Counted from the first letter of the stretch, positions 1-26,533 are shown. The stretch: 26,533 nt of DNA from a virus (IMGVR_UViG_3300027571_000063:1-26533), one strand, 5' to 3'. The notes: a model not told the origin generated them from the sequence alone. Translations and numbers: made by a program.

Positions 1-79
1 AACAACAATGCTGTTGGTTATGCAACAACTGAAGGTTTGGTGCGTGGACTCAATACAAGTGGTTATACTGAAGGTGCAG
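1..79. repeat. Terminal direct repeat/circular overlap, left copy
   Basis: Positions 1-79 match 26455-26533 at 78/79 positions (G61 vs A26515); the reading frame is continuous across the join. Confidence 0.95.
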
Positions 80-2367
80 TGTTATGGTTGGATGGTGCAG
101 GTGTGTTTACACAAACCAAACCACTAACACCACTACACTTGGTACAAGTTGGTTATGTTGTCCGCAGTCATCCTACTCAAGGCAGTATTTTTGTTTGCAT
201 TAAAAATGGCTGGGAACTAGATGAACTTCATGATGTGCTAATCACTGGCATAACTGATGGACAAGGCCTAGTTTGGGATGCCGGTAATGGTTATTGGAAA
301 AATGAAACTATCAGTGTTGACCTAACTGGGTATGCAACTGAAGCATATGTGGATGCTGCAATTCCTACAAATGTAAGTGCATTCACTAACGATGCTGGTT
401 ATGCAACTGAAGAATATGTTAACAGTCAGTTAAGTGGAATTAGTGTTCCAGCCACTACAGATGATCTATTAGAGGGTAGTTTAAACCTTTACTATAGTGA
501 TACATTAGTTAATAATTACCTAACTGCAAACAACTATGCAACCACTGACGATATCCCAACTGATGTAAGTGCATTTAACAATGATGCGGGTTATATTACG
601 GATCCAGGCAATACTTTCACTACTGATGGACAATTTACATTTGTAACTGATTATGGTATTCCAGCATGGGAACCATATAATGGTGAATTTAAAATTGCCA
701 ACTACACTGATCCAGATAACAATCTTTTAAACACCGTTCGTTTACTAACCAGCAACGGCAATGGTTTTGCACAGTACGATGTAGTCGATACTGGTGGTGG
801 TGATGATGGAAGTCACCGGGTTGAATTAAGACTAACTGGCAATGAAAGTGCTATTTTAACTGATAATGCATTGAATATTGGTTCAGATCAATTAACACTC
901 AACAGTGCTAATAATCTAAACATATCAGGTGGTAGTATTGAATTAAATTCTGTCAACCCATTACACTTAAACAGTAATACTGCATTAAATCTTAATGCTA
1001 CTGAGCATAATTTTGTTAATGATGGTACTGTTTATATTAACGCTCTAGACAGCACCAGTTCATATGTTGGAATACAATACAACAGCACACAAACTGTCTA
1101 TAATAGTATAACAGACAGCACTGAAGAACTAAACATTCCATTCAGAATTATCCGCAAGCATACTGATGCCATCGATTATGCTGATGATACACAGATCCTA
1201 ATTCAGTTTGGTGCAGGTGAAGGTGGTAACTTCTACCAATTGGGACAACTTGGTGGGCGTTTTGACCGCATTGATGGTCATGAAACAAAACTACAAACCA
1301 TGAATCCAGCAGACAACAGTTTGTTAAACAACTGGACTGTTCATGAGCATTACCTATATGGTGGTAAACCAATCCGTCAAACATACTATAACAACGCTGG
1401 CCGTGATGGTCTAGCATTGGTGCAAGATGGTATGCTTATCTGGAACACTGAAGGTAATGAACTGCAAGTATACCATGACAGCACTTGGAATAGTGTTGGC
1501 GGCGGTGGCGGAGCCAGTGCGCTAGATGATTTAACTGATGTAACCATCTCTGCGGTTAGTGATGGTGATATCCTACGCTATAATGGTATTGCAATGGAGT
1601 GGCAGAATACTAACCTAGGCCTAAGTTTAACACCACTAATAAGTATTGAAAGTTCATTTGTTGGTGCCACAAATATCTGCACTATTACTAACTATGGTGA
1701 TTATGAAGATCCAAATATTTGGGCACAGGTTAAAGATAGCGGTGGAACAGTAGTAATAACAAACAGCCAGATCACTGACAAATATGATGGCACATTTTCA
1801 TTCACTACGCCATCTATAGACACTGGTTATGTTCTAGAAGTTAAAGTGCAGGATTTCGGTGATTTAGCGAGTGATACTGCCACCGCAACTTTTGATTCTC
1901 TAGCGATTCCGGCAGCAAGATATTATCGCATTAAATTTATAAATGCCACAAGTTATAACATGATCGACCGTGTGCAATTATTTACAGGACCTGCGCAGTC
2001 TGGAACATTGTATCCAACCACAGGGATGACATCAAATACTGCACCAGCACCATATGTAGCAAGTGCTGAATATGTGGCTTCTGTGTCATATGACGCATAT
2101 GAAGCATTTGATAATATCGTAGGTGGTACCGGTAGAAGTTGGTGGAATCTTGGTTCATCTAATTATGCAGGTAGTTGGGTTCAAATAGATCTAGGATCAA
2201 GCATACAAATTGCAAGTTTTATATTAAATCCAATAACCAATCCAAGTTATATTAACTGTGATGGATGGTTAATATACACTAGTAATACAGGAGCATTTGC
2301 TGGCGAAGAAGTATTAAGAGCCACTATTGACAGAATACCAGGCATATATGAGTATACAGTAGGATAA
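1..2367 (+). CDS. Tail fibre/receptor-binding protein, 3' part (starts at 25846 across the circular junction; ~991 aa in total), with a C-terminal discoidin/F5-8 type C-like domain
   Basis: Frame 1 is open from base 1. Fibre-type repeats (LDDLTDVTI...DGDILRYNG..EWQN; IPTNVSAFTNDAGY x2; TTDDLLEGSLNLYY). C-terminal AYEAFDN...SWVQIDLG...IASF pattern resembles discoidin domains. Confidence 0.75.
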   Translation, partial: NNNAVGYATTEGLVRGLNTSGYTEGAVLWLDGAGVFTQTKPLTPLHLVQVGYVVRSHPTQGSIFVCIKNGWELDELHDVLITGITDGQGLVWDAGNGYWKNETISVDLTGYATEAYVDAAIPTNVSAFTNDAGYATEEYVNSQLSGISVPATTDDLLEGSLNLYYSDTLVNNYLTANNYATTDDIPTDVSAFNNDAGYITDPGNTFTTDGQFTFVTDYGIPAWEPYNGEFKIANYTDPDNNLLNTVRLLTSNGNGFAQYDVVDTGGGDDGSHRVELRLTGNESAILTDNALNIGSDQLTLNSANNLNISGGSIELNSVNPLHLNSNTALNLNATEHNFVNDGTVYINALDSTSSYVGIQYNSTQTVYNSITDSTEELNIPFRIIRKHTDAIDYADDTQILIQFGAGEGGNFYQLGQLGGRFDRIDGHETKLQTMNPADNSLLNNWTVHEHYLYGGKPIRQTYYNNAGRDGLALVQDGMLIWNTEGNELQVYHDSTWNSVGGGGGASALDDLTDVTISAVSDGDILRYNGIAMEWQNTNLGLSLTPLISIESSFVGATNICTITNYGDYEDPNIWAQVKDSGGTVVITNSQITDKYDGTFSFTTPSIDTGYVLEVKVQDFGDLASDTATATFDSLAIPAARYYRIKFINATSYNMIDRVQLFTGPAQSGTLYPTTGMTSNTAPAPYVASAEYVASVSYDAYEAFDNIVGGTGRSWWNLGSSNYAGSWVQIDLGSSIQIASFILNPITNPSYINCDGWLIYTSNTGAFAGEEVLRATIDRIPGIYEYTVG

Positions 2368-2372
2368 AGATC

Positions 2373-2591
2373 ATGACATTACAAGAACATTGTGAAAATG
2401 CGATATTAGAATACGCACCATACTATAGACAAAACAATGCTGCATTATTCGGTGAATATACCGATTATATTGCCGCAGTGATTGAATTGCACCGTGGCCA
2501 TTATAGATCTATAGTGGCTGCTGGTGGTACTGAATGGACTGAACTTCCAGCAGATCTGATTCAGTGGATGAACGAGAACAAGCCATACTAA
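2373..2591 (+). CDS. Small hypothetical protein, possibly a fibre assembly chaperone
   Basis: 72 aa, AGGA RBS, directly after the fibre gene; function inferred from position only. Confidence 0.6.
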   Translation: MTLQEHCENAILEYAPYYRQNNAALFGEYTDYIAAVIELHRGHYRSIVAAGGTEWTELPADLIQWMNENKPY

Positions 2592-2602
2592 TGGCTTGTT
2601 CT
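2575..2602 (+). terminator. Perfect 12-bp hairpin without U-tract (attenuator or mRNA-stabilising stem)
   Basis: AGAACAAGCCAT-acta-ATGGCTTGTTCT spans the stop codon of 2373..2591. Confidence 0.5.
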
Positions 2603-2624
2603 ATAATAAAAGGAGAATAACCCC

Positions 2625-4034
2625 ATGTTAATTAATATCAATGGCGTAGCCACAAACACAACTACAGGTGCAAGAGATGTGCAAACTGTAACACGCATAC
2701 AGGATCTGAGTGATGTCAGTATCCCAACTACACCTAGTGAAGGACAACTGCTGATCTGGAATGGCAGTGTCTTTAACTGGCAAAACAGTGATACAGTTAA
2801 TGCTGACTTCACTGTCACTGGCAACTTAATACCATATACCCTGAGAGCAAATGCAGATACAAATAATGCTTTTACATTCCGTACCACTTGGGAAAATTAT
2901 GGCGTTACTGATTATGATTTGAGTACAACTCTAATAACATTCAAAGATTTAAGTTCAAATCGTTTGGGTGTAAACCAATGGCGCACTGAAAATGAAAAAC
3001 AATGGTATCTATACGAAGCAATTGACACTGGTGGTGGTGATGATGGAAGTCATATTAGTAAACTAACACTTCAGGGCAATGGTGGTGCAGAGATAACTTC
3101 AAGCAGTGGTTTGTTAACTGTTAATCCTGCGGTATTGTTGGCAAATGCTAGCACAGGTAATGCCCTAAAGTTCAGCCACATGTGGGAAAACTACGGCACT
3201 ACTGATTATGATGTGACCACACGCTTTGTGCAATATGCAGACCCAGGCAACAGCCATATTGTAGTGCAAAGATGGCAAACACCACAATCTAATACTTTCA
3301 TAACAGTCAATGTTGGTGATACTGGTGGCGGCGATAATGGTACTCACCTCACAGAATTTAACATGCAAGGTGATGAAAGTGCTATTAAAATTACTGATAT
3401 TGGCAATAACTATGCACCACTAAGAATTGATGCCAGTGAATTGCATATTAAGAGTTGGGGCGGTATTAGTGAAATACAAAGTGAAGGAAACCTTAGCTTT
3501 AGCACACTCAGTGGTGGTTCACTGCGCTTTAACCATGAATCAAGTGGTAGTTATATCCAATTAACTGACAATATTGAAATTAACAACAGTAATGGACACA
3601 GCATAGTACTGTCAAACCAGCCTAAAATGTTAACACGGTCGGGTCACTTAAACAGTGGAAGTGAAATATCACTATACCGCTGGAACAACAGTGGCAGTAG
3701 TGCATTGGAATCAGGTAGTCAACTTGCACTTAACTTTAACATGTTAAGTGAAGATCAGACCACTGAAGCTTATGTTGGACAATTCCAAGTTATCTATGAT
3801 TCACCCTCTGGCGGCAACATATTCAATATTGCTGTTAATGATACACTAAACAACCAAGCGAACGCAGTAGAAGTCCGTGAAACACACACTAAATCACAGC
3901 AGCCCATTGCATTTCCACAATTTAACCAAACTGATATTAATGCTATGAGTCCAGCTAATGGTTGGGTTGTATACAATACTACTACAGATAAACTACAAGT
4001 CTATGCAGGCGGAACCTGGGTAGATCTACATTAA
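2625..4034 (+). CDS. Second fibre-like virion protein, paralogous to the central part of the first fibre
   Basis: Strong AAGGAG RBS. Shares DTGGGDDGSH modules, an IQDLSDV...GQLLIWNG..WQN repeat and a C-terminal GWVVYNTTTDKLQVYAGGTW motif with ORF 1..2367. Confidence 0.7.
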   Translation: MLININGVATNTTTGARDVQTVTRIQDLSDVSIPTTPSEGQLLIWNGSVFNWQNSDTVNADFTVTGNLIPYTLRANADTNNAFTFRTTWENYGVTDYDLSTTLITFKDLSSNRLGVNQWRTENEKQWYLYEAIDTGGGDDGSHISKLTLQGNGGAEITSSSGLLTVNPAVLLANASTGNALKFSHMWENYGTTDYDVTTRFVQYADPGNSHIVVQRWQTPQSNTFITVNVGDTGGGDNGTHLTEFNMQGDESAIKITDIGNNYAPLRIDASELHIKSWGGISEIQSEGNLSFSTLSGGSLRFNHESSGSYIQLTDNIEINNSNGHSIVLSNQPKMLTRSGHLNSGSEISLYRWNNSGSSALESGSQLALNFNMLSEDQTTEAYVGQFQVIYDSPSGGNIFNIAVNDTLNNQANAVEVRETHTKSQQPIAFPQFNQTDINAMSPANGWVVYNTTTDKLQVYAGGTWVDLH

Positions 4035-4051: not shown

Positions 4052-4408
4052 ATGAGCAATAATGAGGATGATAACTCAATACCAGAGGAAAAAGGTAAAT
4101 CAGGAAGACCAGAACGGGTATTCACTGAAGAAGAAAAAGAACAGATCCGGCGACTGAGTGAAATATTTGCCAGCCAAGCGGATATTGCATTTGTGATGGG
4201 CGTTAATAGAAGCACACTTCAAAAACACCCAGAACTTATGGAAGAAGGCAAAGCACGGGGTAGAGTAAAACTACGCCGTGCGCAATACGAGAAAGCACTG
4301 GAAGGTAATCCTACTATGCTTATTTGGTTGGGGAAGCAGATGCTTGGTCAATCTGATAATCCTAATGATGGTGACGAAAATCTAGTGTTGCCATGGGAAA
4401 GTAAATAA
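4052..4408 (+). CDS. terS: Terminase small subunit
   Basis: GRP motif, HTH-like QADIAFVMGVNRSTL, and GNPTMLIWLGKQMLGQSD motif typical of this TerS class; lies upstream of TerL; GGAGG RBS. Confidence 0.8.
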   Translation: MSNNEDDNSIPEEKGKSGRPERVFTEEEKEQIRRLSEIFASQADIAFVMGVNRSTLQKHPELMEEGKARGRVKLRRAQYEKALEGNPTMLIWLGKQMLGQSDNPNDGDENLVLPWESK

Positions 4409-4429
4409 ACGAACACGAGGAAATAAAAT

Positions 4430-4753
4430 ATGCCGGGACTGGATTTAACAAGTATAATTGTTACGGGATTAACACTACTGGGCGGCCAAGGCGCTTGGAA
4501 TTATTACCAGCGCAGGCTGGAATTCCGCATTGCAAATGAAAGAAAAGATAAAGATGATAAAAATCTATATCGTGATGATTTGCGTGAACGAGTTGCGATA
4601 CTAGAAGATAGACTGGAAAATGAACGCCGTCAAAACGACGATCTTCATTTACAAATTGCAGAATTAAAAAGCAAAATGATGGAATACATTGTTCGTTTAG
4701 AATACCTGGAAAAAGAAAACCTACGCCTACGCACCAAAGCAGGTGAACTTTAA
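4430..4753 (+). CDS. Single-TM plus coiled-coil membrane protein (holin-like/lysis-associated candidate)
   Basis: N-terminal hydrophobic segment LTSIIVTGLTLLGGQGAW followed by a long heptad-rich charged tail; GAGG RBS. Confidence 0.55.
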   Translation: MPGLDLTSIIVTGLTLLGGQGAWNYYQRRLEFRIANERKDKDDKNLYRDDLRERVAILEDRLENERRQNDDLHLQIAELKSKMMEYIVRLEYLEKENLRLRTKAGEL

Positions 4754-4763
4754 GGAACAAGTT

Positions 4764-4982
4764 ATGATTTATAGATATGAAATAGCGGGTAAGATTATCC
4801 GTGTTAAAGGCGAAAGCCAAAGTGCCGCTGATGCTTATATTAAATTAGTATATGGCTGGCCAGCTGAGGAATTGGAAGATGAACTACACGAAGAAGCGCA
4901 AGCCAAAGAAATAATCAGTGATGGTAGTGAGGCGGAATCTGATCCACATCAGAACGATGGCCCGACAGGGGCAGGTGAATAG
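4764..4982 (+). CDS. Hypothetical acidic protein (72 aa)
   Basis: ATG 4764 follows AAGGA and is preferred over GTG 4743; fills the gap before terL. Confidence 0.6.
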   Translation: MIYRYEIAGKIIRVKGESQSAADAYIKLVYGWPAEELEDELHEEAQAKEIISDGSEAESDPHQNDGPTGAGE

Positions 4983-4997
4983 AGAATATATCAGTAT

Positions 4998-6224
4998 ATG
5001 GCGTTAACAACCCCCCAACAGACTATATTTGATGATCCTGCACGATTTAGAGTTGTAGCGGCAGGTCGCCGTTTCGGTAAAACCTATCTGAGTATGTATG
5101 AGATTGCTCGTATTGCACGATTTCCAAACAAAAGGATATTCTATGTGGCGCCAACTTATCGCATGGGCAAGCAAATTATATGGGAAGACCTTAAACAACA
5201 ACTCAGTGATCGTAAATGGGTTAAGCGTATTAACGAGAGTGATCTTACTATTACTCTGGTCAATAATAGCCGCATTAGTGTGCGCAGTGCTGATAATTTT
5301 GACAGTATGCGTGGCGTTAGTCTTGATTTCATTGTGCTTGATGAATGCGCTTTTATGGATCGTGAGGTCTGGACTGAAGTTTTAAGACCTACACTGAGTG
5401 ATAGACAGGGTGGTGCCCTGTTTATTACTACGCCCAAAGGTTTTAACTGGGTATATGATATGTGGACTTATGCTAAAACTGCTGAGTACTGGAGTTCATT
5501 TCAGTATACAACTATACAAGGTGGCAATGTTACACCTGAAGAAGTTGAATCAGCACGGCATGACTTAGACCTCAAAACATTCCAGCAAGAATATGAAGCA
5601 AGTTTCGAAAATGCTGGGCATATAATTTACCATTCATTTGATATTGAACACAATGTTAAAAGCTATACTGATGACATACCAAAAATATTGCATCTGGGTT
5701 GCGACTTCAACATTAACCCTGTAAGTGGTGTCATTGGAGTTAAAAATAAAACTGGTATGCACATTATTGATGAGATTGTTATCAGTGACAGTAATACGGA
5801 TGAACTTGCGCAGGAGGTTGTCCGCCGTTATCCTGGATATACTATAGTAGCATATCCAGATCCTGCAGGTGCGCAGCGTAAAACCAGCGCAGTTGGTAGA
5901 ACAGACCATAGCATATTGCAGCAATATGGATTTGAAATAAAAGCACATCGCAGACACACCGCGGTGAACGATCGTATTAACGCAGTAAATAAGATGTATT
6001 GTGATGCTGCTGGCGAGCGACGATTATTCATTGATCCACGCTGCCGTAAGACTATTGAATGTGTCACTAAACATCAATATAAAGAAGGAACCCGTGTTCC
6101 TGATAAAGAGAGTGGCTATGACCACCAAAATGATGCAGTTGGATACCTAATAGATTACTTGTATCCAATCCGTAGACCTCATGATCAGACGGAAAATCAA
6201 CCAACGATATGGGGGGTTTATTAA
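4998..6224 (+). CDS. terL: Terminase large subunit
   Basis: Walker A AGRRFGKT, Walker B FIVLDE, coupling motif ITTPKG, nuclease acidic motifs LGCDFN, YPDPAG and DHQNDAVGY. Confidence 0.97.
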   Translation: MALTTPQQTIFDDPARFRVVAAGRRFGKTYLSMYEIARIARFPNKRIFYVAPTYRMGKQIIWEDLKQQLSDRKWVKRINESDLTITLVNNSRISVRSADNFDSMRGVSLDFIVLDECAFMDREVWTEVLRPTLSDRQGGALFITTPKGFNWVYDMWTYAKTAEYWSSFQYTTIQGGNVTPEEVESARHDLDLKTFQQEYEASFENAGHIIYHSFDIEHNVKSYTDDIPKILHLGCDFNINPVSGVIGVKNKTGMHIIDEIVISDSNTDELAQEVVRRYPGYTIVAYPDPAGAQRKTSAVGRTDHSILQQYGFEIKAHRRHTAVNDRINAVNKMYCDAAGERRLFIDPRCRKTIECVTKHQYKEGTRVPDKESGYDHQNDAVGYLIDYLYPIRRPHDQTENQPTIWGVY

Positions 6225-6302
6225 AATGCTAAATATATTGAACGCTTGTCACAGGACTGATCATCCGCATACCCCGTCAAGCATCCTCGAGGAAACAAAC
6301 AA

Positions 6303-7694
6303 ATGAATCTAGAAAAATTATTAAAGACGCATCCGTCTTATGATAGCAACACAGTACAAGCAGATTATCTTTACCGTTCATACCTAGGGGGTGACAAATA
6401 TCGTGCTGGTGAATACTTAACACACTACATTGGTGAGGAATCTGGTCCAGGCGATCAATATCGCAAGAGACTGGCCGCTACGCCACTTGATAACCATGTG
6501 CAAACTACTGTAGACATTTACCGTAGTTTCCTATTCCGTGAATATCCTGAAAGATACCTCGGTAAATTGGCAGACAACCCACTAGTAAAGGATTGGCTAT
6601 CAGATACTGACCAGAGTGGTCAGAGTATGGATAGTTTCCTGAAGTCAGGTAACGACTTAGCTATGGTACTGGGCAATGTCTGGATTCTTGTGGATAAGCC
6701 TTCATATAAAGTCCAAACACAAGCGGAAGCAGAAGCGTTAGGAATACGAGCGTATGCCTGTGTGTATACTCCACAAAATGTACTGGACTGGGAATATAAG
6801 CGCAATATAGCGGGAAAACTACAACTAACATACATCAAAGTGCGTGAGCATGAGAATGATGAGACTATGACACTAACATGCTGGTATCCAGACATGGTTG
6901 TCAAGTATGTGGTTAGTAAAGATTCAACTGGTAAGCCAGATGAAGTTGTAGGCATGGAACAGTATGATAATCCACTAGGTTATATTCCGTTCATTAACCA
7001 TGCACCAGTTAAAGCACCAGTCAATGGCCTAGGTCAGAGTTTAGTTGCTGATGTTGCTGATGGGCAAAAATACATCTACAACTTACTAAGTGAACTAGAG
7101 CAAAGTATCCGTATTAGTGGTCACCCAAGCCTAGTTAAAACACCAAGCACAACTGCAAGTGCAGGTGCAGGCAGTATTATTACTATGCAGGAAGATATGG
7201 ATCCAGGCTTAAAGCCATACCTATTGCAGCCAACCGCTGCTGGTATTGACAGTATCCTAAACACTATTGATAAAGTAGTTGAAGGCATCCAGCGCATGAC
7301 TCACACTGCGGCTGTGCAGGCAACCAAAGGTGCTCCAATGAGCGGTGTTGCACTGCAAACAGAGCGTCAATTGCTTAATGCTAAACTAAGTGATATTGCA
7401 GATACAGTCCAAGAAACAGAGATTGCTATGTGGCGTATCTGGTTGGATTGGCAAGCACTTAACATGCCTGAAGAATTTGAAATTGAATATAAAACAACTT
7501 TTGATTTGCGTGACCAACACGCAGAACTAGAACTATATCGCAAGGCTATTGAAACTGTACCATCGTCAGCGTTTAAGCGTGCCTTGTATACTGAGATTGC
7601 TAAAATGACAGTTGATGAAGAAATGCTCAGCGAAGTTTTAGCAGACATTGGCGCTGCCAATGTTGAGGTCCCGCTAGAAAGCGGCGAAGCATAA
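6303..7694 (+). CDS. Portal protein (SPP1 gp6-like)
   Basis: 463 aa directly after terL; NPLGYIPF and MSGVAL motifs characteristic of this portal class. Confidence 0.88.
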   Translation: MNLEKLLKTHPSYDSNTVQADYLYRSYLGGDKYRAGEYLTHYIGEESGPGDQYRKRLAATPLDNHVQTTVDIYRSFLFREYPERYLGKLADNPLVKDWLSDTDQSGQSMDSFLKSGNDLAMVLGNVWILVDKPSYKVQTQAEAEALGIRAYACVYTPQNVLDWEYKRNIAGKLQLTYIKVREHENDETMTLTCWYPDMVVKYVVSKDSTGKPDEVVGMEQYDNPLGYIPFINHAPVKAPVNGLGQSLVADVADGQKYIYNLLSELEQSIRISGHPSLVKTPSTTASAGAGSIITMQEDMDPGLKPYLLQPTAAGIDSILNTIDKVVEGIQRMTHTAAVQATKGAPMSGVALQTERQLLNAKLSDIADTVQETEIAMWRIWLDWQALNMPEEFEIEYKTTFDLRDQHAELELYRKAIETVPSSAFKRALYTEIAKMTVDEEMLSEVLADIGAANVEVPLESGEA

Positions 7695-19810: not shown

Positions 19811-19818
19811 CACTGAGT

Positions 19819-19883: not shown

Positions 19884-19922
19884 TAGATGTAACAGATGGT
19901 TACGCTACAAAGGAAAAAGACA

Positions 19923-20102: not shown

Positions 20103-20593
20103 ATATCTTCAAGATTAAAGAACATGCTATGGATCCGCAAACCACACGCAGTGGTAAAATTAAAACGGATAGCAATGGCGAACCACTACGCAGTGTGCAA
20201 CTATTACAAAGTCCAGAACAACGCCGCGAGATGGCTAAAATCCTAAACAACATGCCACGCATTTATGATGAATGCCCAGAACTATTCCCCACAGGTAAGC
20301 ATCACATTGGCAATGATCCCACAAGTTATACTGTTGCTGATATGATGGCTGACTGCAAAACCCGTATGCCACGCTGGAGCAGTGCAATGAGTGGTGCCCA
20401 CATTTACCGCAGTTTTGTTGAACGCCACAACTGGTGCTTGGATCGACTGATTGAGGGCTTGTATGCTGCTGGATTGGAAGACGAGATTATGAATGTTGAG
20501 CGTGACTACCGCATTAAACTACGCCTACCAAAGCATGAAGAAATCAGCCGCGCTCTTAAAAAGAGTGATATCTTTGATCTATACAGTGAATAA
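20099..20593 (+). CDS. Hypothetical protein (164 aa)
   Basis: GAGGAG RBS; no recognised family. Confidence 0.75.
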   Translation: MNIFKIKEHAMDPQTTRSGKIKTDSNGEPLRSVQLLQSPEQRREMAKILNNMPRIYDECPELFPTGKHHIGNDPTSYTVADMMADCKTRMPRWSSAMSGAHIYRSFVERHNWCLDRLIEGLYAAGLEDEIMNVERDYRIKLRLPKHEEISRALKKSDIFDLYSE

Positions 20594-20597
20594 AATC

Positions 20598-20631
20598 TTG
20601 ACAAAGTATACACATATGTTATAAGTAAATA
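20598..20631 (+). promoter_or_regulatory. Sigma70-type promoter (copy 2) followed by TAAATA
   Basis: TTGACAAAGTATACACATATGTTATAA identical to 19854-19880; TAAATA at 20626-20631. Confidence 0.8.
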
Positions 20632-20641
20632 GTGAGCAGGA

Positions 20642-20750
20642 AGGTTGACCTTTAACCTAGATTTCACCTAGTATGATCCGCACTAGGCTGCACAAGCGGA
20701 TCACACACTGAACTGAAATCCAGTGTCTAAACAAAACTAGAGGTTCCAAA
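20642..20750 (+). promoter_or_regulatory. Structured 5' leader with a predicted double pseudoknot
   Basis: Four perfect Watson-Crick stems of 7, 6, 8 and 6 bp in crossed order within 67 nt (20660-20726). Confidence 0.6.
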
Positions 20751-22097
20751 ATGAAGATAAGTGTTGATAGTCGTAGATGTGGTGCTGGCAAGACTGCTGG
20801 CATTGGTGGTATTTTTGACCGTATCCAATTACACACACAACGAAATGAGAGCGTGTTGGTAACTGTTCCCAGCATTAAACTAATTGAACAGTATTATAAA
20901 CAATTCCCTGATGCCACTGTTATTACAAGTGAGACAGTGGACAATGTTCAAGCACACCTGCATAACGCATTTAACAATGGTGCTGAACTAATCATTATTA
21001 CACATAAAGCATTCCTTGAAAGCCAGATCCTAAGTGGAACACGCGGCTTGTATAACTTGATTATTGACGAGGCTTTTGACCCCTGGCGTAGCCAAACATA
21101 TGAGCAATCAGCACTTGACATTAACTTTGACTGGAATGTCTTGCTTGCGGCAACTCCAGTAAATGATATTGAGGGCTGGAACACGCTGCATTTGAAACAC
21201 AATATCCGCACTAATACTATTAGCAATAGCAGCAACTTTGTTCGTGATATCTACAACACTAACTGGCGTATGTATATTAAGACTGAGCAATACGAAAGTT
21301 GGACTATGGATGGCACTCGTCGTGTTGAGTTTGTGCAGGAACTAGATCCAGGTATACTGAGTGGCTGGTGCAGTGTGCATGTTGCAGCCGCAGCATTTGA
21401 AAAGACATTCATGTATTGGTGGGTGCTGAAGCATGGCATTCATATCAAAGTCACTAAGCCATTTGAACCTCACACCACACAGATCACTATTCATTATCCA
21501 GAAGATGGACATGGCGGCACTACTTGGAGCAAATACAAGACACTGAATCAACCAGAGATCAAACAAACATTTCGTGATTATGTAAATGCTGTTGGTGCTC
21601 CACTACTGCGTCTAAAAAATAACAATGATTTTACTGTAATGAATAACAGCGAAGTTATCGGTCATAATGCAGCAGGTATCAATGGCAAAAGCCATTATGA
21701 GCATGTTGTTATGGAAAGCACACTTAATCCAACACCACTTATGGGTGAATGGCTTAAAATGCAAGCCAGCAATTACTTGCCAAGCACAACTCGAGCAGAT
21801 GTTGCACTATTTGAAGCCCGCACTGGTTATATCTTTTATCAAGTAGGTATGCGTTGCAGCCTGCGTGATGAGCGGCCAGCCCACTTCTATGTAATTGATA
21901 ATAGAGCAGTTATTGCCCTAACTTATTACTTTGATAATGTTAAAATGGCAGATATCCACTACAAGTCAGATAGAGGACCTGCCCCACTAACAGGAGCAGA
22001 AAAATCAAGGGCAAACAGAGCACTTAAAAAGAACCCAGAGAAGTATAAAGGGATGAAATACAGGGATATCTTAGATGACCTGCTACGCAAGTCATGA
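20751..22097 (+). CDS. SF2 helicase-like protein, putative replication initiator/origin-binding protein
   Basis: Walker A CGAGKT, motif Ia VPSIKLIEQ, Ib IITH, Walker B LIIDE, motif VI-like YQVGMRCSLR; basic C-terminus. The initiator role is inferred. Confidence 0.75.
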   Translation: MKISVDSRRCGAGKTAGIGGIFDRIQLHTQRNESVLVTVPSIKLIEQYYKQFPDATVITSETVDNVQAHLHNAFNNGAELIIITHKAFLESQILSGTRGLYNLIIDEAFDPWRSQTYEQSALDINFDWNVLLAATPVNDIEGWNTLHLKHNIRTNTISNSSNFVRDIYNTNWRMYIKTEQYESWTMDGTRRVEFVQELDPGILSGWCSVHVAAAAFEKTFMYWWVLKHGIHIKVTKPFEPHTTQITIHYPEDGHGGTTWSKYKTLNQPEIKQTFRDYVNAVGAPLLRLKNNNDFTVMNNSEVIGHNAAGINGKSHYEHVVMESTLNPTPLMGEWLKMQASNYLPSTTRADVALFEARTGYIFYQVGMRCSLRDERPAHFYVIDNRAVIALTYYFDNVKMADIHYKSDRGPAPLTGAEKSRANRALKKNPEKYKGMKYRDILDDLLRKS

Positions 22098-22190
22098 CAT
22101 TTCACAAATGCAAGCATTTGTTCATGTCATATTTTAGAAATACAAGAGTAACTAAGACCTAATAAGACTCTATAGAAAATAGTTACTCTT
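22094..22190. repeat. Two inverted repeats, candidate replication origin
   Basis: ATGACAT..ACAAATGC-aa-GCATTTGT..ATGTCAT (22094-22130) and AAGAGTAACTA-25 nt-TAGTTACTCTT (22144-22190). Confidence 0.5.
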
Positions 22191-22224
22191 TCCAAAAGAA
22201 ACACCAAGGGGGCGCGATATGCAC

Positions 22225-22252
22225 TTGACAACTGAATGCAATGCACTATACT
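22225..22252 (+). promoter_or_regulatory. Sigma70-type promoter
   Basis: TTGACA-16 nt-TATACT upstream of the AAGGAG RBS. Confidence 0.7.
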
Positions 22253-22283
22253 TAAAATATACACTGAAAAAGGAGCGAATGAA

Positions 22284-22610
22284 ATGAAAGATCTACCACT
22301 AGTAATGCAGCAAACATGTGAAGACATTATGCGAACCTATAAAGTAGATGCAGATTGTGCAGCAAAAATATTTGACCAAAAAATGCTAGGGAAATGTGAA
22401 TGTTGTGGTAAAAAAGACATACCTGCAAACAAAATGCATATTGATCATAACCACAAAACAGGACTTGTTAGAGGTGTTGTTTGTGCTAGTTGCAATGTTA
22501 CATTTGGAAGAATGGAAAGTGATGCTTTTAAAAGGATAAAGCACAAGCATAGACTATATCAGCCATATCATTGGGATTGGATAGTGTTCCGCGGATACCC
22601 AAAAACATGA
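22284..22610 (+). CDS. Endonuclease VII-family (His-Me finger) nuclease
   Basis: CECCG...HIDHNHKTGLVRGVVCASCN matches the CxxC...DHxH.TG.VRG.LC..CN signature; ATG 22284 follows AAGGAG. Confidence 0.88.
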   Translation: MKDLPLVMQQTCEDIMRTYKVDADCAAKIFDQKMLGKCECCGKKDIPANKMHIDHNHKTGLVRGVVCASCNVTFGRMESDAFKRIKHKHRLYQPYHWDWIVFRGYPKT

Positions 22611-22719: not shown

Positions 22720-22839
22720 ATGGATAAAGACAGCCGTGCATACCGAATAGGATACACTATAGGTAGACAGTTAGTGGCAGCAGTATTAGCGGCTGCACTA
22801 GTGTTCATCCCATATCTAATCTACATCAAATACTTCTAA
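22720..22839 (+). CDS. Small single-TM membrane protein (39 aa), absent from the ORF track
   Basis: MDKDSRAYRIGYTIGRQLVAAVLAAALVFIPYLIYIKYF*; GAAAGG RBS; alternative in-frame ATG at 22705. Confidence 0.65.
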   Translation: MDKDSRAYRIGYTIGRQLVAAVLAAALVFIPYLIYIKYF

Positions 22840-22874
22840 TAAATAACTATACAACGAAAAGGAAACCCCCCAAA

Positions 22875-23069
22875 ATGAAATATCACAACATTAAAGAAGC
22901 AGCAGAATGGTTTTATGACCGCATCTTTAGTCAGCCCACAGAAGGCCTAAAGAAACAAGTGTTAATCACTTACTATGAAGAAGGCGGTAACTTCCATGTG
23001 GAAACTGTTACACGCAACTATTATGGCGTAAATGATTATCAGGACAGTGTAAGTCACGAGGTATTCTGA
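22875..23069 (+). CDS. Hypothetical protein (64 aa)
   Basis: AAGGA RBS; ATAAATA upstream; stop overlaps the next start. Confidence 0.7.
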   Translation: MKYHNIKEAAEWFYDRIFSQPTEGLKKQVLITYYEEGGNFHVETVTRNYYGVNDYQDSVSHEVF

Positions 23070-23500
23070 TGATTGACCCACAAATGAGCAGTGACCACCG
23101 CTGGCGTTCCTTCCAAAATTGGTGGAATAAAAATCACCACAGGCGCAAGGGACATGACTGGCTTTGCGCACATGCACGGCGTATCGCTTATGCATACTTC
23201 TTCCCACCAGAACTGTTTGATGATATTCAATACATTACAAAGCGTTATTATAACAGTGAATACAAGCGGCTAAGTCATATTAATGCTTGGATGCTTTGGA
23301 AGTTCGTGCATCCACTACACAATCGCCGTGTAAAAGCAATTGAAGCAGCGGCAGATCGTTACGAGGAAAAGCGTCAAAAACTCAAAGAACTAAAAGACAG
23401 CCAGCCAGAGAAAACTGATAAACCAGCAGAACCAGTCAAAAAGACTGTAATCGTAGAAAGGAAAGTAAAGCGTGTTCTTAACCGTCCAACCTCAACATAA
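23069..23500 (+). CDS. Hypothetical basic protein (143 aa)
   Basis: TGATG coupling; Trp/His-rich N-terminus and charged C-terminus. Confidence 0.7.
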   Translation: MIDPQMSSDHRWRSFQNWWNKNHHRRKGHDWLCAHARRIAYAYFFPPELFDDIQYITKRYYNSEYKRLSHINAWMLWKFVHPLHNRRVKAIEAAADRYEEKRQKLKELKDSQPEKTDKPAEPVKKTVIVERKVKRVLNRPTST

Positions 23501-23684: not shown

Positions 23685-23823
23685 CTGTAACATTCTGTAA
23701 TCTTTTGTTACTAAGAAAAGTGAAAAAAACTTCAAAAAACTCTTGCTCTTTGGGTCAACACACACTATATTATAAGAGTAAGCAGAGAGGCTTACTTAAC
23801 AACACAGAAAGAGAGAAATAGAA
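23684..23823 (+). repeat. Cassette leader repeat 1: phased boxes, promoter, 5' stem-loop and RBS
   Basis: CTTGCT(23742)-17-CTATAT(23765); GTAAGC-agagag-GCTTAC hairpin; near-identical to 24155-24272 and similar to 24570-24694. Confidence 0.9.
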
Positions 23824-24093
23824 ATGTTTAAAACTGTAGCGCAAAACATGCTTATAAAATCCGTTGTAAACGCACACATCAAATACCTTGAGAACACTGT
23901 TCTCCCGCGTATGGAAGAACTTGGATACGCAGGGTTTAATAAAGTGGTTGATAAAGACGGCAATGAACGCACTCCGATTTTGAAAGTCCTCTATGAAGCA
24001 TATATGACTCACGGGCGCAGAATTCCGCAGCACAAACTAGACTACATTATTCATTCTCACTGCTGCAAAGATGACGCAGTAGACGCTGCTTAA
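23824..24093 (+). CDS. Cassette 1 hypothetical early protein (89 aa)
   Basis: Has its own promoter and terminator; ends in -DAA. Confidence 0.8.
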   Translation: MFKTVAQNMLIKSVVNAHIKYLENTVLPRMEELGYAGFNKVVDKDGNERTPILKVLYEAYMTHGRRIPQHKLDYIIHSHCCKDDAVDAA

Positions 24094-24103
24094 CACATAC
24101 TAC

Positions 24104-24150
24104 CCTAACATTTACAGTACTGGCCCAGCGATTGCTGGGCTTTTTTTGTA
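24104..24150 (+). terminator. Repeated Rho-independent terminator, copy 1
   Basis: CCTAACATTTACAGTACTG-GCCCAGC-gatt-GCTGGGC-T7; near-identical to 24520-24565. Confidence 0.88.
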
Positions 24151-24154
24151 TCAG

Positions 24155-24272
24155 ACTGTAACATTCTGTAATCTTTTGTTACTAAGAAACTTCAAAATAA
24201 CTCTTGCTCTTTGGTTCAACACACACTATATTATAAGAGTAAGCAGAGAGGCTTACATTAACACAGAAAGAG
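24155..24272 (+). repeat. Cassette leader repeat 2
   Basis: CTTGCT(24203)-17-CTATAT(24226); same boxes and leader hairpin as repeat 1. Confidence 0.9.
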
Positions 24273-24509
24273 ATGAAAATGAGACTTACTATTGAAACTG
24301 CAACTGACTACGCAATGACACTGAAGCCTGCTGAAGCGTTTGACATTGAATTGCCCGCTGGCACTAAAATGCGTATTATTAAACACACTGACTGGGTTGT
24401 AATTGACCTCAACAATTATGCTGTTACACAGTGTATGAATGCTAAAGAACTTAGCAAAGCAATTGAAACTGTATACACACTGGACTTTCACAAGAGTCTA
24501 GCAGCGTAA
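24273..24509 (+). CDS. Cassette 2 hypothetical early protein (78 aa)
   Basis: Has its own promoter and terminator; ends in -SLAA; start could be 24279. Confidence 0.8.
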   Translation: MKMRLTIETATDYAMTLKPAEAFDIELPAGTKMRIIKHTDWVVIDLNNYAVTQCMNAKELSKAIETVYTLDFHKSLAA

Positions 24510-24519
24510 TACACACTGT

Positions 24520-24565
24520 CCTAACATTTACAATACTGGCCCAGCATTGCTGGGCTTTTTTTGTA
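24520..24565 (+). terminator. Repeated Rho-independent terminator, copy 2
   Basis: GCCCAGC-att-GCTGGGC-T7. Confidence 0.88.
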
Positions 24566-24569
24566 ACAA

Positions 24570-24694
24570 ACTGTAACATTTTGTTACTAAGAAAAGTGAA
24601 AAAAAGTAGTAATATGTCTTGATTTTCTTAGTAACACACACTATATTATAAAGGTAAGCGCGGTGCTTACAGCAACACAGAAACGGAGACACAG
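24570..24694 (+). repeat. Cassette leader repeat 3 (diverged)
   Basis: CTTGAT(24618)-17-CTATAT(24641); leader stem GTAAGC...GCTTAC retained with a different loop; GGAG RBS. Confidence 0.85.
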
Positions 24695-24979
24695 ATGACC
24701 AAACGCAACGCAATCAAAGAACTAGTTAACAGCAACGACACTGTGCGTATGAAAAAAGCAATGGATGCTTGGAATGAAACATTAGATAGCATTGTTGCTG
24801 CCAACACTGACATTCATACCCGCACCACGCTTAATGACTACGGTTTCTATAACATGGCTAACAAACTCAAGCGTGAAGGCAACATTGCGCTATACAACGA
24901 GTTTACTAGCATTCATGAACTTTACATGAGTGTCTACTACTCATGGATGGAAGCAGAAACTGGCGTTAAAATGCGTTAA
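24695..24979 (+). CDS. Cassette 3 hypothetical early protein (94 aa)
   Basis: GGAG RBS after the repeated promoter. Confidence 0.8.
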   Translation: MTKRNAIKELVNSNDTVRMKKAMDAWNETLDSIVAANTDIHTRTTLNDYGFYNMANKLKREGNIALYNEFTSIHELYMSVYYSWMEAETGVKMR

Positions 24980-25026
24980 AACTTCAAAATAACTCTTGAC
25001 AAGATGATTTTGTTGTAATATAAATA
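24978..25026 (+). promoter_or_regulatory. Sigma70-type promoter sharing the cassette upstream element, -10 = TATAAATA
   Basis: AAACTTCAAAATAACTCTTG identical to repeat 2; TTGACA(24996)-17-TATAAATA(25019). Confidence 0.75.
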
Positions 25027-25030
25027 AAAA

Positions 25031-25105
25031 TATAATAGAGTTTCTAATACTTTATTCATCTCCATAATAACTTGGGACTGGGCCTAAAAATCCAGTCCCT
25101 TTTTT
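25031..25105 (+). ncRNA. Putative sRNA 3 (~75 nt)
   Basis: Promoter, then a largely unstructured stretch containing TTTATTCATCTCCAT, then terminator GGGACTGG...CCAGTCCC-T6 (25074-25105); no ORF. Confidence 0.55.
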
Positions 25106-25106
25106 C

Positions 25107-25134
25107 TTGACATCTCTGAACTATATATTATTAT
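25107..25134 (+). promoter_or_regulatory. Sigma70-type promoter
   Basis: TTGACA-16 nt-TATTAT immediately after the terminator. Confidence 0.55.
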
Positions 25135-25250: not shown

Positions 25251-25306
25251 CTTGCTTAAATACACTGTATGATCGCTCAGGTGGGGGTTCCTGTGCTGAG
25301 CATACT

Positions 25307-25360
25307 GGGCCAGCACCTCCTTGGGCTGGCCCTCCTTTTGCTAAATATAAACACAAGGAG
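25307..25360 (+). promoter_or_regulatory. RBS-sequestering element with an embedded TAAATA late-promoter-like motif
   Basis: CTCCTTG(25317-23) and CTCCTT(25332-37) are complementary to (C)AAGGAG(25354-60); TAAATA at 25342-47 lies between them. Confidence 0.6.
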
Positions 25361-25369
25361 ATCATGATC

Positions 25370-25519
25370 ATGACAAACGAAAATACCCCATTAGAAAAAG
25401 AGATCGCATATCTCGTAAAAGCAACTGGCAACTTGGTAACAGTATTAACACTCTGGTTTATCATTACACAAGTTTACGCTGGATTGGACTTTATAATGCA
25501 AAGTTTATTTGGAGTATAG
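25370..25519 (+). CDS. Small membrane protein (49 aa), first gene of the virion operon
   Basis: AAGGAG RBS (ATG 25364 or 25370); hydrophobic LVTVLTLWFIITQVYAGLDFIM. The 25133 start in the ORF track runs through terminators. Confidence 0.7.
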   Translation: MTNENTPLEKEIAYLVKATGNLVTVLTLWFIITQVYAGLDFIMQSLFGV

Positions 25520-25522
25520 TAT

Positions 25523-25849
25523 ATGGCCATATACAATATAACAGTTAACAGGAATGCGGATTTTACCAGAAGTTTCCAGGTTAAAATTGACGGTGTTCCT
25601 GTTGACATCGGCGGGTATCAGTTTGATGCCAGCCTTAAAGAGAATATTCACGAACCTGCTGGCGTAGCATTCACCACTGTAATTGCAAGTGCAGTGGATG
25701 GATTGTTTAACATCAGTTTGAGTGACACTACAACAGCCAGCATGAAGAGCGGAACATGGGTATACGATATCCTAATGACTGACACTGCTGGATTTAAAAC
25801 ACGCCTACTAGAGGGTCAGGCATTTGTTAAGGGTGGGGTAACACTATGA
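25523..25849 (+). CDS. BppU-N-like beta-sandwich fibre attachment/adaptor protein
   Basis: YNITVNRNADF...DGVPVDIGGY...GTWVYDI...RLLEGQAFV pattern; directly precedes the fibre gene. Confidence 0.7.
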   Translation: MAIYNITVNRNADFTRSFQVKIDGVPVDIGGYQFDASLKENIHEPAGVAFTTVIASAVDGLFNISLSDTTTASMKSGTWVYDILMTDTAGFKTRLLEGQAFVKGGVTL

Positions 25850-26533
25850 CAGTTTATACTACAGTCCCACAGGATGACAGCAATCTAGAAATCACTGTAA
25901 TTGAAAGTGATGATCTAGTAACACTGGATCTAAACAGTGCCAGTTTCAACCTTATTGGTGCCGTTAACAGTGTTAATGGACTACAGGGCGATGTTACACT
26001 GGAACTGGGCTTACCTGAAGCCGCAGTTCAAACACTTATTGACGACAGTATTGCCAGTATTGACTATCCAGTTGATACGGTTAATGGGCAAACTGGTGAT
26101 GTAGTACTAACCACAACTGAAGTAGCCGAAGGAGTAAACCAGTATTATACTGATGAACGAGTGGACACATACTTAACAGGTGGTGAAGTAACCAGCATTA
26201 ACTTTGGTGGTGCGACAAGTCTATCATGGAATAGTGATGAAGGCACACTGGAGTTTCCAGTCAACGCTGATGTAACACTGCAAGTTGGACAAGAGAATCT
26301 TATCCATGTTAAGAATCTGAGTGGAAGTACATTAAACAATGGTGCTGTTGTTCGTGTAACCGGTGCAAGTGGAAGCAAACTAACAGTTGACTTGGCAAAC
26401 AATACCAGTGATGCTGTCAGTGCAGATACAATTGCAGTCATGACACAATCATTGAACAACAATGCTGTTGGTTATGCAACAACTGAAGGTTTGGTGCGTG
26501 GACTCAATACAAGTAGTTATACTGAAGGTGCAG
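25846..26533 (+). CDS. Tail fibre, 5' part (continues at base 1), absent from the ORF track
   Basis: ATG 25846 (ATGA overlap), open to the window end. Fibre repeats VNSVNGLQGDVTL and VDTVNGQTGDVVL; in frame with 1..2367 via the overlap. Confidence 0.9.
   Translation, partial: MTVYTTVPQDDSNLEITVIESDDLVTLDLNSASFNLIGAVNSVNGLQGDVTLELGLPEAAVQTLIDDSIASIDYPVDTVNGQTGDVVLTTTEVAEGVNQYYTDERVDTYLTGGEVTSINFGGATSLSWNSDEGTLEFPVNADVTLQVGQENLIHVKNLSGSTLNNGAVVRVTGASGSKLTVDLANNTSDAVSADTIAVMTQSLNNNAVGYATTEGLVRGLNTSSYTEGA
26455..26533. repeat. Terminal direct repeat/circular overlap, right copy
   Basis: Matches 1-79 with one mismatch. Confidence 0.95.

Follow-up and report, generated by a model that had tools for sequence, protein, structure and literature searches.

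How does a small phage transcribe its virion genes when the promoters in front of them resemble those of T4 and no protein that would read such promoters is recognized in its genome? The question is raised by a 26,533-nt stretch of viral DNA (IMGVR_UViG_3300027571_000063:1-26533; hereafter, the window). The original prediction, made from the sequence alone, described it as the closed genome of a phage with a full head and tail, which may borrow late transcription, and perhaps replication and lysis, from a co-infecting T4-like phage.

The structural part of this description was borne out. The window holds a closed genome of siphovirus type, 26,454 bp in length, as shown by a 79-nt terminal repeat with a single mismatch and by a fibre ORF of 991 aa that spans the circular junction. 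Profile searches (Pfam, PHROGs) gave matches for a full set of head and long-tail genes, namely TerS, TerL, portal, scaffold, MCP, terminator, tail tube, neck, chaperone, tape measure, Dit, hub, Tal, and fibre assembly (Table 1). The phage belongs to a widespread family of small marine phages with a complete head and tail; at a threshold of E<=1e-20, 3,608 relatives of its portal were found. No close relative turned up among the 185,579 species genomes scanned, which yielded only two distant contigs.

Table 1. Features of the window, with predicted promoters, genes, and RNA elements in order of position
Position	Strand	Feature	Remarks
1..4034	+	Remainder of fibre 1, 72-aa gene, fibre 2	
4052..6224	+	TerS, membrane/coiled-coil gene (weak holin/spanin matches), small ORF, TerL	Without a conserved box of its own
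6229..6235	+	CTAAATA, predicted late-promoter box of the portal gene	55/55 relatives
6303..7694	+	Portal	PHROG 145, E 7e-55
7691..7697	+	ATAAATA, predicted late-promoter box of the scaffold-capsid-tail operon	53/53 relatives
7726..18968	+	Scaffold, MCP, connector, terminator, tail tube, neck, chaperone, tape measure, Dit, hub, NlpC/P60-like protein, Tal	
18976..19452	+	Protein of no assigned function, candidate regulator or initiator	Position where relatives have an alpha/beta protein with C-terminal HTH
19433..19463	+	Putative dual promoter TTGACA-17-TATAAATA, sigma70 geometry plus box	Box in 11/11 genomes
19469..19812	+	Structured non-coding region with end terminator, candidate regulatory RNA or origin	z -5.2
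19854..22610	+	Variable module behind sigma70-type promoters 19854, 20598, 22225	
22839..22845	+	ATAAATA box (site 22840) ahead of the 22875-23069 operon	Kept at the equivalent place in 7/9 genomes
23069..23500	+	Sole sequence-conserved non-structural protein, five helices	10/11 family genomes
23686..24979	+	Three repeated single-gene cassettes, sigma70-type promoters TTGCTC/TTGATT-17-TATATT	First two terminator-ended
24996..25134	+	Two sigma70-type promoters (24996, overlapping TATAAATA 25019; 25107)	Terminator-like hairpin after each
25257..25262	+	TAAATA box, first of a conserved pair, heading a small two-hairpin RNA	Pair in window and 9/9 relatives
25263..25341	+	Two-hairpin RNA element; loop 1 UGGGGGUU, loop 2 anti-Shine-Dalgarno-like CCUUG	
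25342..25347	+	CTAAATA box of the operon small membrane gene, LtfC, fibres, TerS, TerL	Conserved
25361..25519	+	52-aa membrane protein, holin-like by shape only	Similar small gene here in 9/10 relatives
25523..25849	+	LtfC-like fibre assembly protein	PHROG 3304, E 5e-17
25846..26533	+	Fibre gene, 5' part, running over the circular junction	

All twelve TAAATA coordinates listed in the original prediction are correct. The window contains 16 such sites on the + strand and 1 on the - strand, a bias that is not general, as relatives have 13-20 and 0-18, respectively. Nine sites are wholly intergenic, in 2,305 intergenic bases, compared with 2.36 on average over 2,000 dinucleotide shuffles, one of which reached 9. 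The positional enrichment that had been proposed as a check is also present, with TAAATA ranking fourth among all hexamers within 100 nt of starts, behind three Shine-Dalgarno words. The listed sites are of unequal worth: those at 6230, 7692, 19458, 25257, and 25342 are strongly conserved, but about half are weak (chance, coding, or sigma70 overlap). Sites 4402 (kept in 2/10 near-complete relatives), 11259 (4/10 near-complete relatives; within the W-A-K-Y codons of a chaperone extension), and 18920 (0/9 relatives) are probably not core promoters, judging from their conservation.

Among relatives dereplicated at 90% portal identity, TAAATA is found upstream of portal in 55/55 and of scaffold in 53/53, at distances from the start that vary from 16 to 97 nt; the counts for other genes are 0/43 (terL), 1/33 (terS), 3/49 (MCP), and 1/47 (connector). 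After dereplication at 70%, all 16 portal and all 14 scaffold regions carry the box, and TAAATA is the sole hexamer common to every one of them, ranking over the Shine-Dalgarno words. The base at -1 is A or C in 107/108 portal and scaffold sites. The box is orientation-specific, since its reverse complement occurs at 0/55 portal and 1/53 scaffold regions, and it is mostly separate from the preceding stop codon; the scaffold box of the window overlaps the portal stop, but stands free in most relatives. TTGAC occurs within 45 nt upstream of the box at 0/55 portal and 1/53 scaffold sites, and neither a TG extension nor a -35 is conserved at the head-gene boxes. Boxes are placed before the portal, scaffold, and fibre operons, and also before some non-structural units.

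The claim that no TTGACA-type promoter precedes the structural genes needed correction. Host-type promoters are numerous in this genome, with a separate sigma70 set on the small non-structural module, and one of them, TTGACA-16-TATTAT at 25107, lies ahead of the virion operon, with a terminator-like hairpin (25219-25247) behind it. Three sites with exact TATAAATA (19456, 19876, and 25019) stand 16-17 nt behind exact TTGACA (19433, 19854, and 24996) and, by sequence, also form sigma70 -35/-10 promoters; site 20626 is preceded by TTGACA at 20598. The overlapped sigma70/box form at 19433 occurs in the window and in 7/10 relatives. In 4/10 relatives, TAAATA stands apart, behind a full TTGAC..TAnAAT promoter, and the box is thus not the sigma70 -10. 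The variable module at 19854 holds two ORFs of no assigned function, a DEAD-like helicase, and endonuclease VII. The helicase gene is found in the window and one relative (G003) only; its cultured matches are T4-like Aeromonas/Stenotrophomonas phages, and the matching gene of Aes508 (22% identity, E 3e-4) adjoins gp55.

T4 late promoters are described in the available text of two papers as TATAAATA at -13 to -6 with no -35, and CTAAATA as the Aeh1 variant (PMC1524935, PMC2988020). The pelagimyophage HTVC008M, which encodes gp55, has the same box before 22 of 41 inspected genes, the majority of the 22 being virion genes; the base at -1 is A or C in 19 of them. The flanks are unlike those of HTVC008M, in that +6 is A in 77% of family sites and G in 72% of HTVC008M sites. 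The likeness to T4-family late transcription consists of an (A/C)TAAATA box with a core as in HTVC008M and Aeh1, no -35, and a position before virion genes. Given its invariance over a diverged family, we regard the predicted assignment of the box to the T4-type late promoters as strongly supported. The phages themselves differ, since the window encodes a 26-kb phage of siphovirus type, whereas T4-like phages are myoviruses, and the T4 family (Straboviridae, Kyanoviridae) has its own gp55, gp33, gp45, gp43, and contractile tail, none of which was detected in the window.

Searches for polymerase, primase, SSB, integrase, sigma, and endolysin gave no match in 33 window ORFs (Pfam, PHROGs) or 20 (NCBIfam), and no tRNA was found in the window. 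Likewise, gp55, gp33, sigma, polymerase, integrase, and endolysin were not detected in the window or in up to 10 relatives, and six-frame profiles for gp55, gp33, sigma70 region 2, and two endolysin families matched 0/5 complete genomes each. Comparison of 17 HTVC008M replication, transcription, and lysis proteins with 12 small genomes gave one weak 43-aa match, and 87/144 non-structural proteins of 10 relatives gave HTH and holin-like matches only. The predicted lack of a sigma, replisome, integrase, and endolysin was thus reproduced by profile searches in the window and in complete relatives, and profile searches for gp55, sigma factors, and lysins among unassigned ORFs, as had been suggested, gave no match either. 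The list of missing functions does need qualification, as a helicase-like gene, endonuclease VII, and weak holin/spanin-like genes occur (the 52-aa membrane protein had no NCBIfam match), and each genome has some dozen small ORFs to which no function is assigned, so that absence here means non-detection.

On balance, we think it probable that this is a helper-dependent small phage, whose virion genes are read by the gp55 of a co-infecting T4-like phage. Of the original proposal, the box and the missing reader, replisome, and endolysin stand; the dependence itself is what we infer from them. Following injection, host sigma70 would transcribe the early cassettes and non-coding RNA, and the virion operons (25342, 6230, and 7692) would be silent until helper gp55/gp33 arrive. 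Activated T4 late transcription requires the gp45 clamp to be loaded on the same DNA, and the genome would therefore probably be replicated or entered by the helper replisome. Helper endolysin would then release both kinds of particle. With no integrase, the helper might be met by chance co-infection, in a carrier state, or through binding to the helper virion. The missing integrase, together with the size and diversity of the family, implies that frequent co-infection would be required, which counts against helper dependence. We are evenly divided on whether the 24-29 kb ocean tailed phages of this large, diverse family are bacterial counterparts of virophages. On that reading, they would build complete virions of their own, but express their late genes, and probably also replicate and lyse the cell, through the machinery of co-infecting T4-like myoviruses. 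Small RNAs and the one conserved helical protein would serve to exploit the helper or hold it back.

We consider it unlikely, though worth serious attention, that the phage is autonomous and that an unrecognized late factor of its own (an HTH protein or the product of 23069) steers host RNA polymerase to TAAATA, while host enzymes replicate the genome and an unrecognized enzyme lyses the cell. Cultured kin do replicate without their own polymerase, holin-like genes are present, 23069 (74 homologs; structure model pLDDT 83) is found in almost every family genome, and an HTH-type protein follows Tal in 8/10 relatives (cluster c22). The latter aligns to Mor and Mu C among other proteins (Z 5.5; E 0.017 against a Mor-labelled viral model). 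It resembles many HTH families, since similarity of its C-terminal domain (residues 124-181 only; Z 5.5-7.7) extends to sigma region 4, LuxR, DeoR, and Mu Mor/C. However, late operons of the Mu C/Mor type have a conserved activator site upstream of the sigma70 -10, and no conserved non-coding motif was found ahead of the boxes of portal and scaffold, where positions -45 to -8 are variable or belong to coding sequence. Moreover, the gene after Tal varies in sequence while the box is invariant, and the model of the HTH protein has beta strands in its N-terminal domain, unlike sigma region 2, the reader of -10 boxes, which is helical. Region 2 profiles had no match in the 18976 or 23069 proteins, fold comparisons leave room for such a domain, and homology between the 18976 protein and the HTH family was undetected (identity 11-22%, hhalign probability 0.1%). 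As for 23069, it looks late itself, because a box precedes it in 7/9 genomes, and the uncultured phage DSL-LC06 has the box with 23069 undetected. Convergence on the exact T4-family box would also be unexplained by a factor of the phage's own.

It is improbable that a host factor reads the box, whether this is sigma70 at promoters that consist of a -10 alone or another host sigma that acts in a particular physiological state, making a helper unnecessary. Although the three exact TATAAATA sites overlap sigma70 geometry, sigma70 -10 boxes have a TAnnnT core, which (A/C)TAAATA fits in no register; the head-gene sites conserve neither a -35 nor a TG extension, and the tandem arrangement in 4/10 relatives points to two promoter classes. 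Still less credible is a signal at the RNA level or for DNA binding (processing, antitermination, or packaging-related) in place of a promoter, despite the conserved RNA hairpins just 3' of several boxes. The two-hairpin RNA has compensatory changes at 9/12 consensus pairs of a 19-sequence alignment (z -2.9), and the structured region at 19469 has its terminator at 19782-19803, with one RNA piece spanning 19480-19621; neither element had a match in Rfam. Against such a signal, the box is orientation-specific and belongs to a known promoter class; it opens operons, immediately behind a stop codon or a terminator, as well as small RNAs that have a terminator at their end. Chance, or a stop-codon artefact of AT-rich DNA, can be given virtually no weight; it would account for sites 4402, 11259, and 18920 and for AT-rich cultured kin, but is refuted for the core sites by the 108/108 portal and scaffold regions with a box and by the shuffle control.

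The nearest cultured head and packaging genes are those of HTVC111P-type pelagiphages (portal 38-40%, TerL 45-48%), with a like gene order. According to the available text, these phages grow without their own DNA polymerase (10.1101/2019.12.14.876532), so that a missing polymerase alone is no argument for a helper. They differ from the window family in having a lysin and a DnaD-domain protein, both annotated in the fully read HTVC111P and HTVC026P (HTVC111P also has an HTH regulator); both lysin families were found in 0/5 complete genomes of the window family. The two groups form separate clades in the portal tree (99/100 for the window family; 99/99 for the HTVC111P type), and the HTVC111P type has the box before scaffold in 0/4. 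At 30% GC, these phages have TAAATA within 130 nt of MCP in 3/4 and of portal in 1/4, at stop codons. The 29.8-kb DSL-LC06 (OR003941; proposed 'Nanhuiviridae'), in whose description the available text mentions neither satellite nor helper (PMC10611076), has no annotated replication or lysin gene, and boxes precede its scaffold and connector genes and further operon heads; it differs in its portal (39% identity, without box) and in its glycosyltransferase cargo. Another relative at 39% portal identity (L188) also has the scaffold box.

Satellites such as MiniFlayer, MulchRoom (PMC10690885), Ando (PMC13587820), cf-PICIs, and Phanie (via PMC11476376) likewise have their own capsid/packaging genes and no obvious replicase; MiniFlayer lacks an integrase (PMC10690885) and Ando lysis genes (PMC13587820). 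As far as the available text of these sources goes, use of a helper's late sigma is not mentioned. MiniFlayer, MulchRoom, Ando, and cf-PICIs have no full tail of their own or need a helper tail, whereas the window family has tube, tape measure, Dit, hub, Tal, and fibres; dependence has been demonstrated for these satellites and is proposed here. P4, PICI, PLE, and PICMI are parasites of larger phages, as the window phage would be, and PLE and PICMI exploit virulent ones, but they integrate and borrow virion parts, whereas in the window no integrase was detected and all virion parts are its own. Virophages of giant viruses are described as having a complete virion of their own and borrowing transcription and replication from a large co-infecting virus (PMC11389934). 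Their eukaryotic hosts and unrelated capsids make this a functional analogy only. Sputnik and mavirus reportedly have late-promoter motifs in common with their helpers.

Virion-gene RNA was found in three metatranscriptomes, which is equally compatible with an autonomous phage. RNA contigs of three runs start at 25366, 25377, and 25399, past the box at 25342, where a DNA contig runs through, and those of two runs start at 6254 and 6255, after the portal box at 6230, where DNA contigs continue; these starts, 19-52 nt past the boxes, are a weak hint, as contigs cannot show transcription starts. RNA contigs also cover the first two cassettes of the repeated set at 23686. Almost all of the 25 best cultured matches of the LtfC-like protein belong to cyanophages and Melnitz phages of 140-200 kb, with HTVC008M also matched, and LtfC is thus common mainly to large cyanophage-type myoviruses and the window phage.

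Among 7,999 candidates scored, 3,608 were portal relatives at E ≤ 1e-20, and the best 120, the window's own excepted, shared 60-87% identity. We fetched 160 loci of this marine family, which together with the window were dereplicated to 56 at 90% portal identity, and counted the TAAATA box, our candidate gp55-type late promoter, within 130 nt upstream of gene starts in those loci with enough flank. The portal gene was preceded by the box in 55/55 loci and the scaffold gene in 53/53, at 16-97 nt from the start, while it was found upstream of terL in 0/43, terS in 1/33, the capsid gene in 3/49 and the connector gene in 1/47. At these two genes, the conservation that would be expected from the original prediction was observed. 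At 70% dereplication, TAAATA (16/16 portal and 14/14 scaffold genes) was the sole hexamer common to all; the preceding base was A or C in 107/108 cases and a -35 element was absent. The fibre-terminase operon starts behind a pair of boxes in the window and in all nine near-complete relatives shown, and a box also follows the gene after Tal (11/11 genomes) and precedes the operon of ORF 23069 (7/9). Because four of ten relatives carry a complete TTGAC..TAnAAT promoter with a separate TAAATA downstream of it, we distinguish two promoter classes in the family. In the lake phage DSL-LC06 and contig L188 (39% portal identity), the box precedes the scaffold and connector genes. The published DSL-LC06 sequence (L164, 239-18927) has no annotated replication or lysin genes, and its + strand holds only 9 TAAATA sites, most at operon heads, making it a second clade of candidates.

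The window has 16 copies of TAAATA on the + strand and one on the - strand. Nine copies lie wholly within intergenic DNA (2,305 bases), where dinucleotide shuffles gave a mean of 2.36, and nine was reached by 1 of 2,000 shuffles, in line with the proposed enrichment. The mask behind this count took 23519 as the start of the gene whose ORF is at 23472, which shifts 18 of its bases, none of them holding the box. The coordinates originally listed for TAAATA were correct, and those listed as promoters divide into a retained core set, three poorly kept sites that overlap coding sequence, and three that double as sigma70 promoters (see table). Scans for sigma70 promoters were overall at chance (48 vs 49; 23 vs 30). 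Measured against the archaeal TATA consensus, an archaeal reading was set aside, given A/C at base -1 and the Shine-Dalgarno and TTGACA signals of the genome.

Coordinates of features in the window
Position	Feature	Observation
4402	TAAATA	kept in 2/10 relatives; overlaps coding sequence
6230, 7692, 22840, 25257, 25342	TAAATA	core set
6254, 6255	RNA contig starts (two runs)	just past box; DNA contigs continue
6255-6267	TGATCA in portal leader
11153-11306	open frame after tail chaperone	consistent with frameshift extension; holds 11259 site
11259	TAAATA	kept in 4/10 relatives; overlaps coding sequence
18899, 19892	loose ends in run X2	match G003 form
18920	TAAATA	kept in 0/9 relatives; overlaps coding sequence
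19456, 19876, 25019	TAAATA	TTGACA 16-17 nt upstream
19469-19812	structured non-coding region	after dual promoter
19892-26454	module	proteins identical in G003
23686-24979	three repeated promoter-gene cassettes	~415-460 nt each; leaders near-identical
25263-25341	two-hairpin RNA
25350-25360	Shine-Dalgarno	of downstream small membrane gene
25366, 25377, 25399	RNA contig starts (three runs)	just past box; DNA contigs continue

Three estuary metatranscriptome assemblies contain pieces of the genome; their runs, located by way of the head region, perhaps belong to a single campaign and may include DNA carry-over. The positions at which their contigs begin give a weak hint that transcription starts just after the boxes at 6230 and 25342, and say nothing of the reader. 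The terL gene, the helicase module and 24530-25360 lie outside RNA contigs, although contig gaps prove nothing. RNA contigs over the first two cassettes stop near the cassette terminators.

Terminal repeats of 79 nt, differing at one position, close the window to a 26,454-bp circle; a 991-aa fibre ORF spans the junction, and all credible genes are on the + strand. A complete siphovirus-type virion is encoded in ~20 kb (Pfam, PHROGs): TerS, TerL, portal, scaffold, capsid, connector, terminator, tail tube, neck, chaperone, tape measure, Dit, hub, Tal, fibres and LtfC. The other 6.5 kb carries a DEAD-like helicase, endonuclease VII and ~10 ORFs of unassigned function. No tRNA was found in the window, and its ORFs (33 searched with Pfam and PHROGs, 20 with NCBIfam) gave no match to a polymerase, primase, SSB, integrase, sigma or endolysin, in agreement with the original claim of a full head and tail without recognised genes of these kinds. 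ORF 4430 weakly matches holin and spanin. The NlpC/P60-like ORF 17100 was rejected as a lysin and taken as a tail part: of the NlpC/P60 catalytic motif, the conserved Cys is present but the conserved His is absent (10 sequences). In tblastn searches of cultured phages, 20099, 23069, MCP and fibre 2 gave zero matches; no close prophage of the family was found in GTDB genomes, and codon use in the window (CTA, 54% of Leu; AGA, 9% of Arg) is unlike that of SAR11 phages.

T4 late promoters are described as TATAAATA at -13 to -6, without a -35 and read by gp55, with CTAAATA as the variant of Aeh1; gp55 by itself supports basal late transcription, and activation requires gp33 and the gp45 clamp loaded on the same DNA (PMC1524935, PMC2988020). 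In the gp55-encoding pelagimyophage HTVC008M, the box lies ahead of 22/41 inspected genes, most of which encode virion proteins, and base -1 is A or C at 19 of the 22 sites; its gp55 and gp45 genes themselves are without it. The position matrix of HTVC008M was built on 18 of these 22 sites chosen by hand, and the A/C count given here is that of the unselected set. The flanks of the box differ somewhat between HTVC008M and the family, and we therefore regard HTVC008M as a model of the helper class, not as the helper. Given two classes of promoter, a box that never varies at the virion operons, and a reader, replisome, integrase and endolysin that went undetected in our searches, we think it somewhat likely that these are helper-dependent phages, whose virion operons are switched on by the gp55 of a co-infecting T4-like phage. 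The early module would be served by host sigma70 and the virion operons turned on by helper gp55 and gp33; since late activation requires the gp45 clamp, the helper replisome would act on this phage's DNA, and progeny would be released by the helper endolysin. MiniFlayer, which is without an integrase, meets its helper by binding the helper virion (PMC10690885).

Two gene links point weakly the same way. The 25 best cultured matches of LtfC are nearly all 140-200 kb cyanophage-type myoviruses, and cultured matches of the helicase are confined to T4-like phages of Aeromonas and Stenotrophomonas (22% identity). In Aeromonas phage Aes508 (L007:3971-5410), the relative of the helicase-like gene, which bears the annotation hypothetical, immediately precedes gp55. 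One member of protein family c20 (L178:7133-7375) weakly matches HTVC008M gp32 over 43 aa (E 0.003 and 4e-5), whereas the other seven c20 members did not.

The closest cultured kin, the HTVC111P-type pelagiphages (portal 38-40%), form a separate clade in the portal tree, and the two fully read carry a lysin and a DnaD-domain protein. Here the box precedes the scaffold gene in 0/4 and the portal gene in 1/4, there 3 nt from the start codon. However, a box does lie near the capsid start in 3/4, at stop codons in 30%-GC DNA, which counts against dependence on a helper; TAAATA is common on both strands of these genomes. As they are also without a polymerase (bioRxiv 2019.12.14.876532), the missing replisome is not itself evidence for a helper.

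That the box is instead read by the phage's own activator is rather unlikely in our view. The layout is the same in ten relatives that measure 24-29 kb, four of which have terminal repeats, and their non-structural module, a few kb long, varies; 87 of their 144 non-core proteins, at least one per family, gave only HTH and holin-like matches, and a six-frame profile search for gp55, gp33, sigma70 region 2 and two endolysin families returned zero in 5/5 complete genomes. One candidate activator is encoded after Tal in 8/10 relatives and comprises an alpha/beta domain with a C-terminal HTH (model pLDDT 80), resembling sigma region 4, LuxR, DeoR, Mor and Mu C alike in fold comparisons that cover residues 124-181 only and barely test the N-terminal domain. 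The window's ORF at the same place, 18976, has no detectable homology to this HTH family, although the box is invariant. Another candidate is 23069, kept in 10/11 genomes, but it usually stands behind a box itself and was undetected in DSL-LC06. A host factor as the reader seems to us very unlikely, and a non-promoter role for the box barely probable.

ORF 23069, with a predicted fold of five helices, was rejected as a sigma or gp55: it had no profile match to HTVC008M gp55, gp44 or gp62, Foldseek matched nothing at E ≤ 0.001 (PDB, viral models), and no sigma stood among its top 50 VIA matches. A clamp-loader collar domain ranked first in the fold comparison (2gno; Z 6.7, rmsd 2.5, 73 residues), and clamp-loader or related AAA C-terminal domains made up 9 of the top 50; this is not significant, since Z is under 8 for a helical bundle, and serves as no more than a lead. 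Should the modelled likeness be real, 23069 could help to load the helper clamp. Atlas searches gave sub-threshold leads only. G003 (L169; 16178-equivalent region), with a portal 69% identical, has its non-structural module in common with the window and does not count as independent; either the module was swapped recently or the assembly is a chimera.

Virophages share late promoters with their helpers. They build whole virions and borrow a giant virus factory (PMC11389934), and the family would be their functional analogue, not a true virophage. MiniFlayer, MulchRoom, Ando, cf-PICIs and Phanie encode capsids of their own; a full tail is missing from them or has to come from the helper. Known phage satellites take heads or tails from another phage and are recognised by the virion parts they miss. 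One with a complete virion would pass for an ordinary phage in every method based on gene content. In literature from which subscription papers were mostly missing, we found no report of a complete-virion phage using helper gp55, nor of the promoters of this family. If the helper reading is correct, a family with thousands of marine portal variants would be parasites of T4-like myoviruses rather than independent predators, which would change the counting of viral lysis and phage-phage competition at sea and could explain why single-phage isolation misses them; the box offers a simple sequence test for finding more. If the own-activator rival is correct, a factor not yet known reads T4-type late promoters.

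Several RNA elements accompany the boxes. In the conserved two-hairpin RNA, the CCUUG loop complements the downstream Shine-Dalgarno, with which it appears by eye to covary, and translation of a holin-like protein could be blocked by this RNA, acting in cis or in trans, for as long as the second box is silent. A small-RNA pattern scan was too loose, with 20/119 loci passing a second filter and 16 of these 20 carrying family genes. The structured non-coding region after the dual promoter is found in all genomes (L166:5958-6063, for example), has no Rfam match (six sources) and is a candidate helper-interfering RNA or origin; there, an 11-pair helix closes an RNA common to eight relatives, and the window sequence differs. 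Finally, TGATCA, usually in a hairpin loop, is present in the portal leader of 43/55 relatives and is a possible translational control site.
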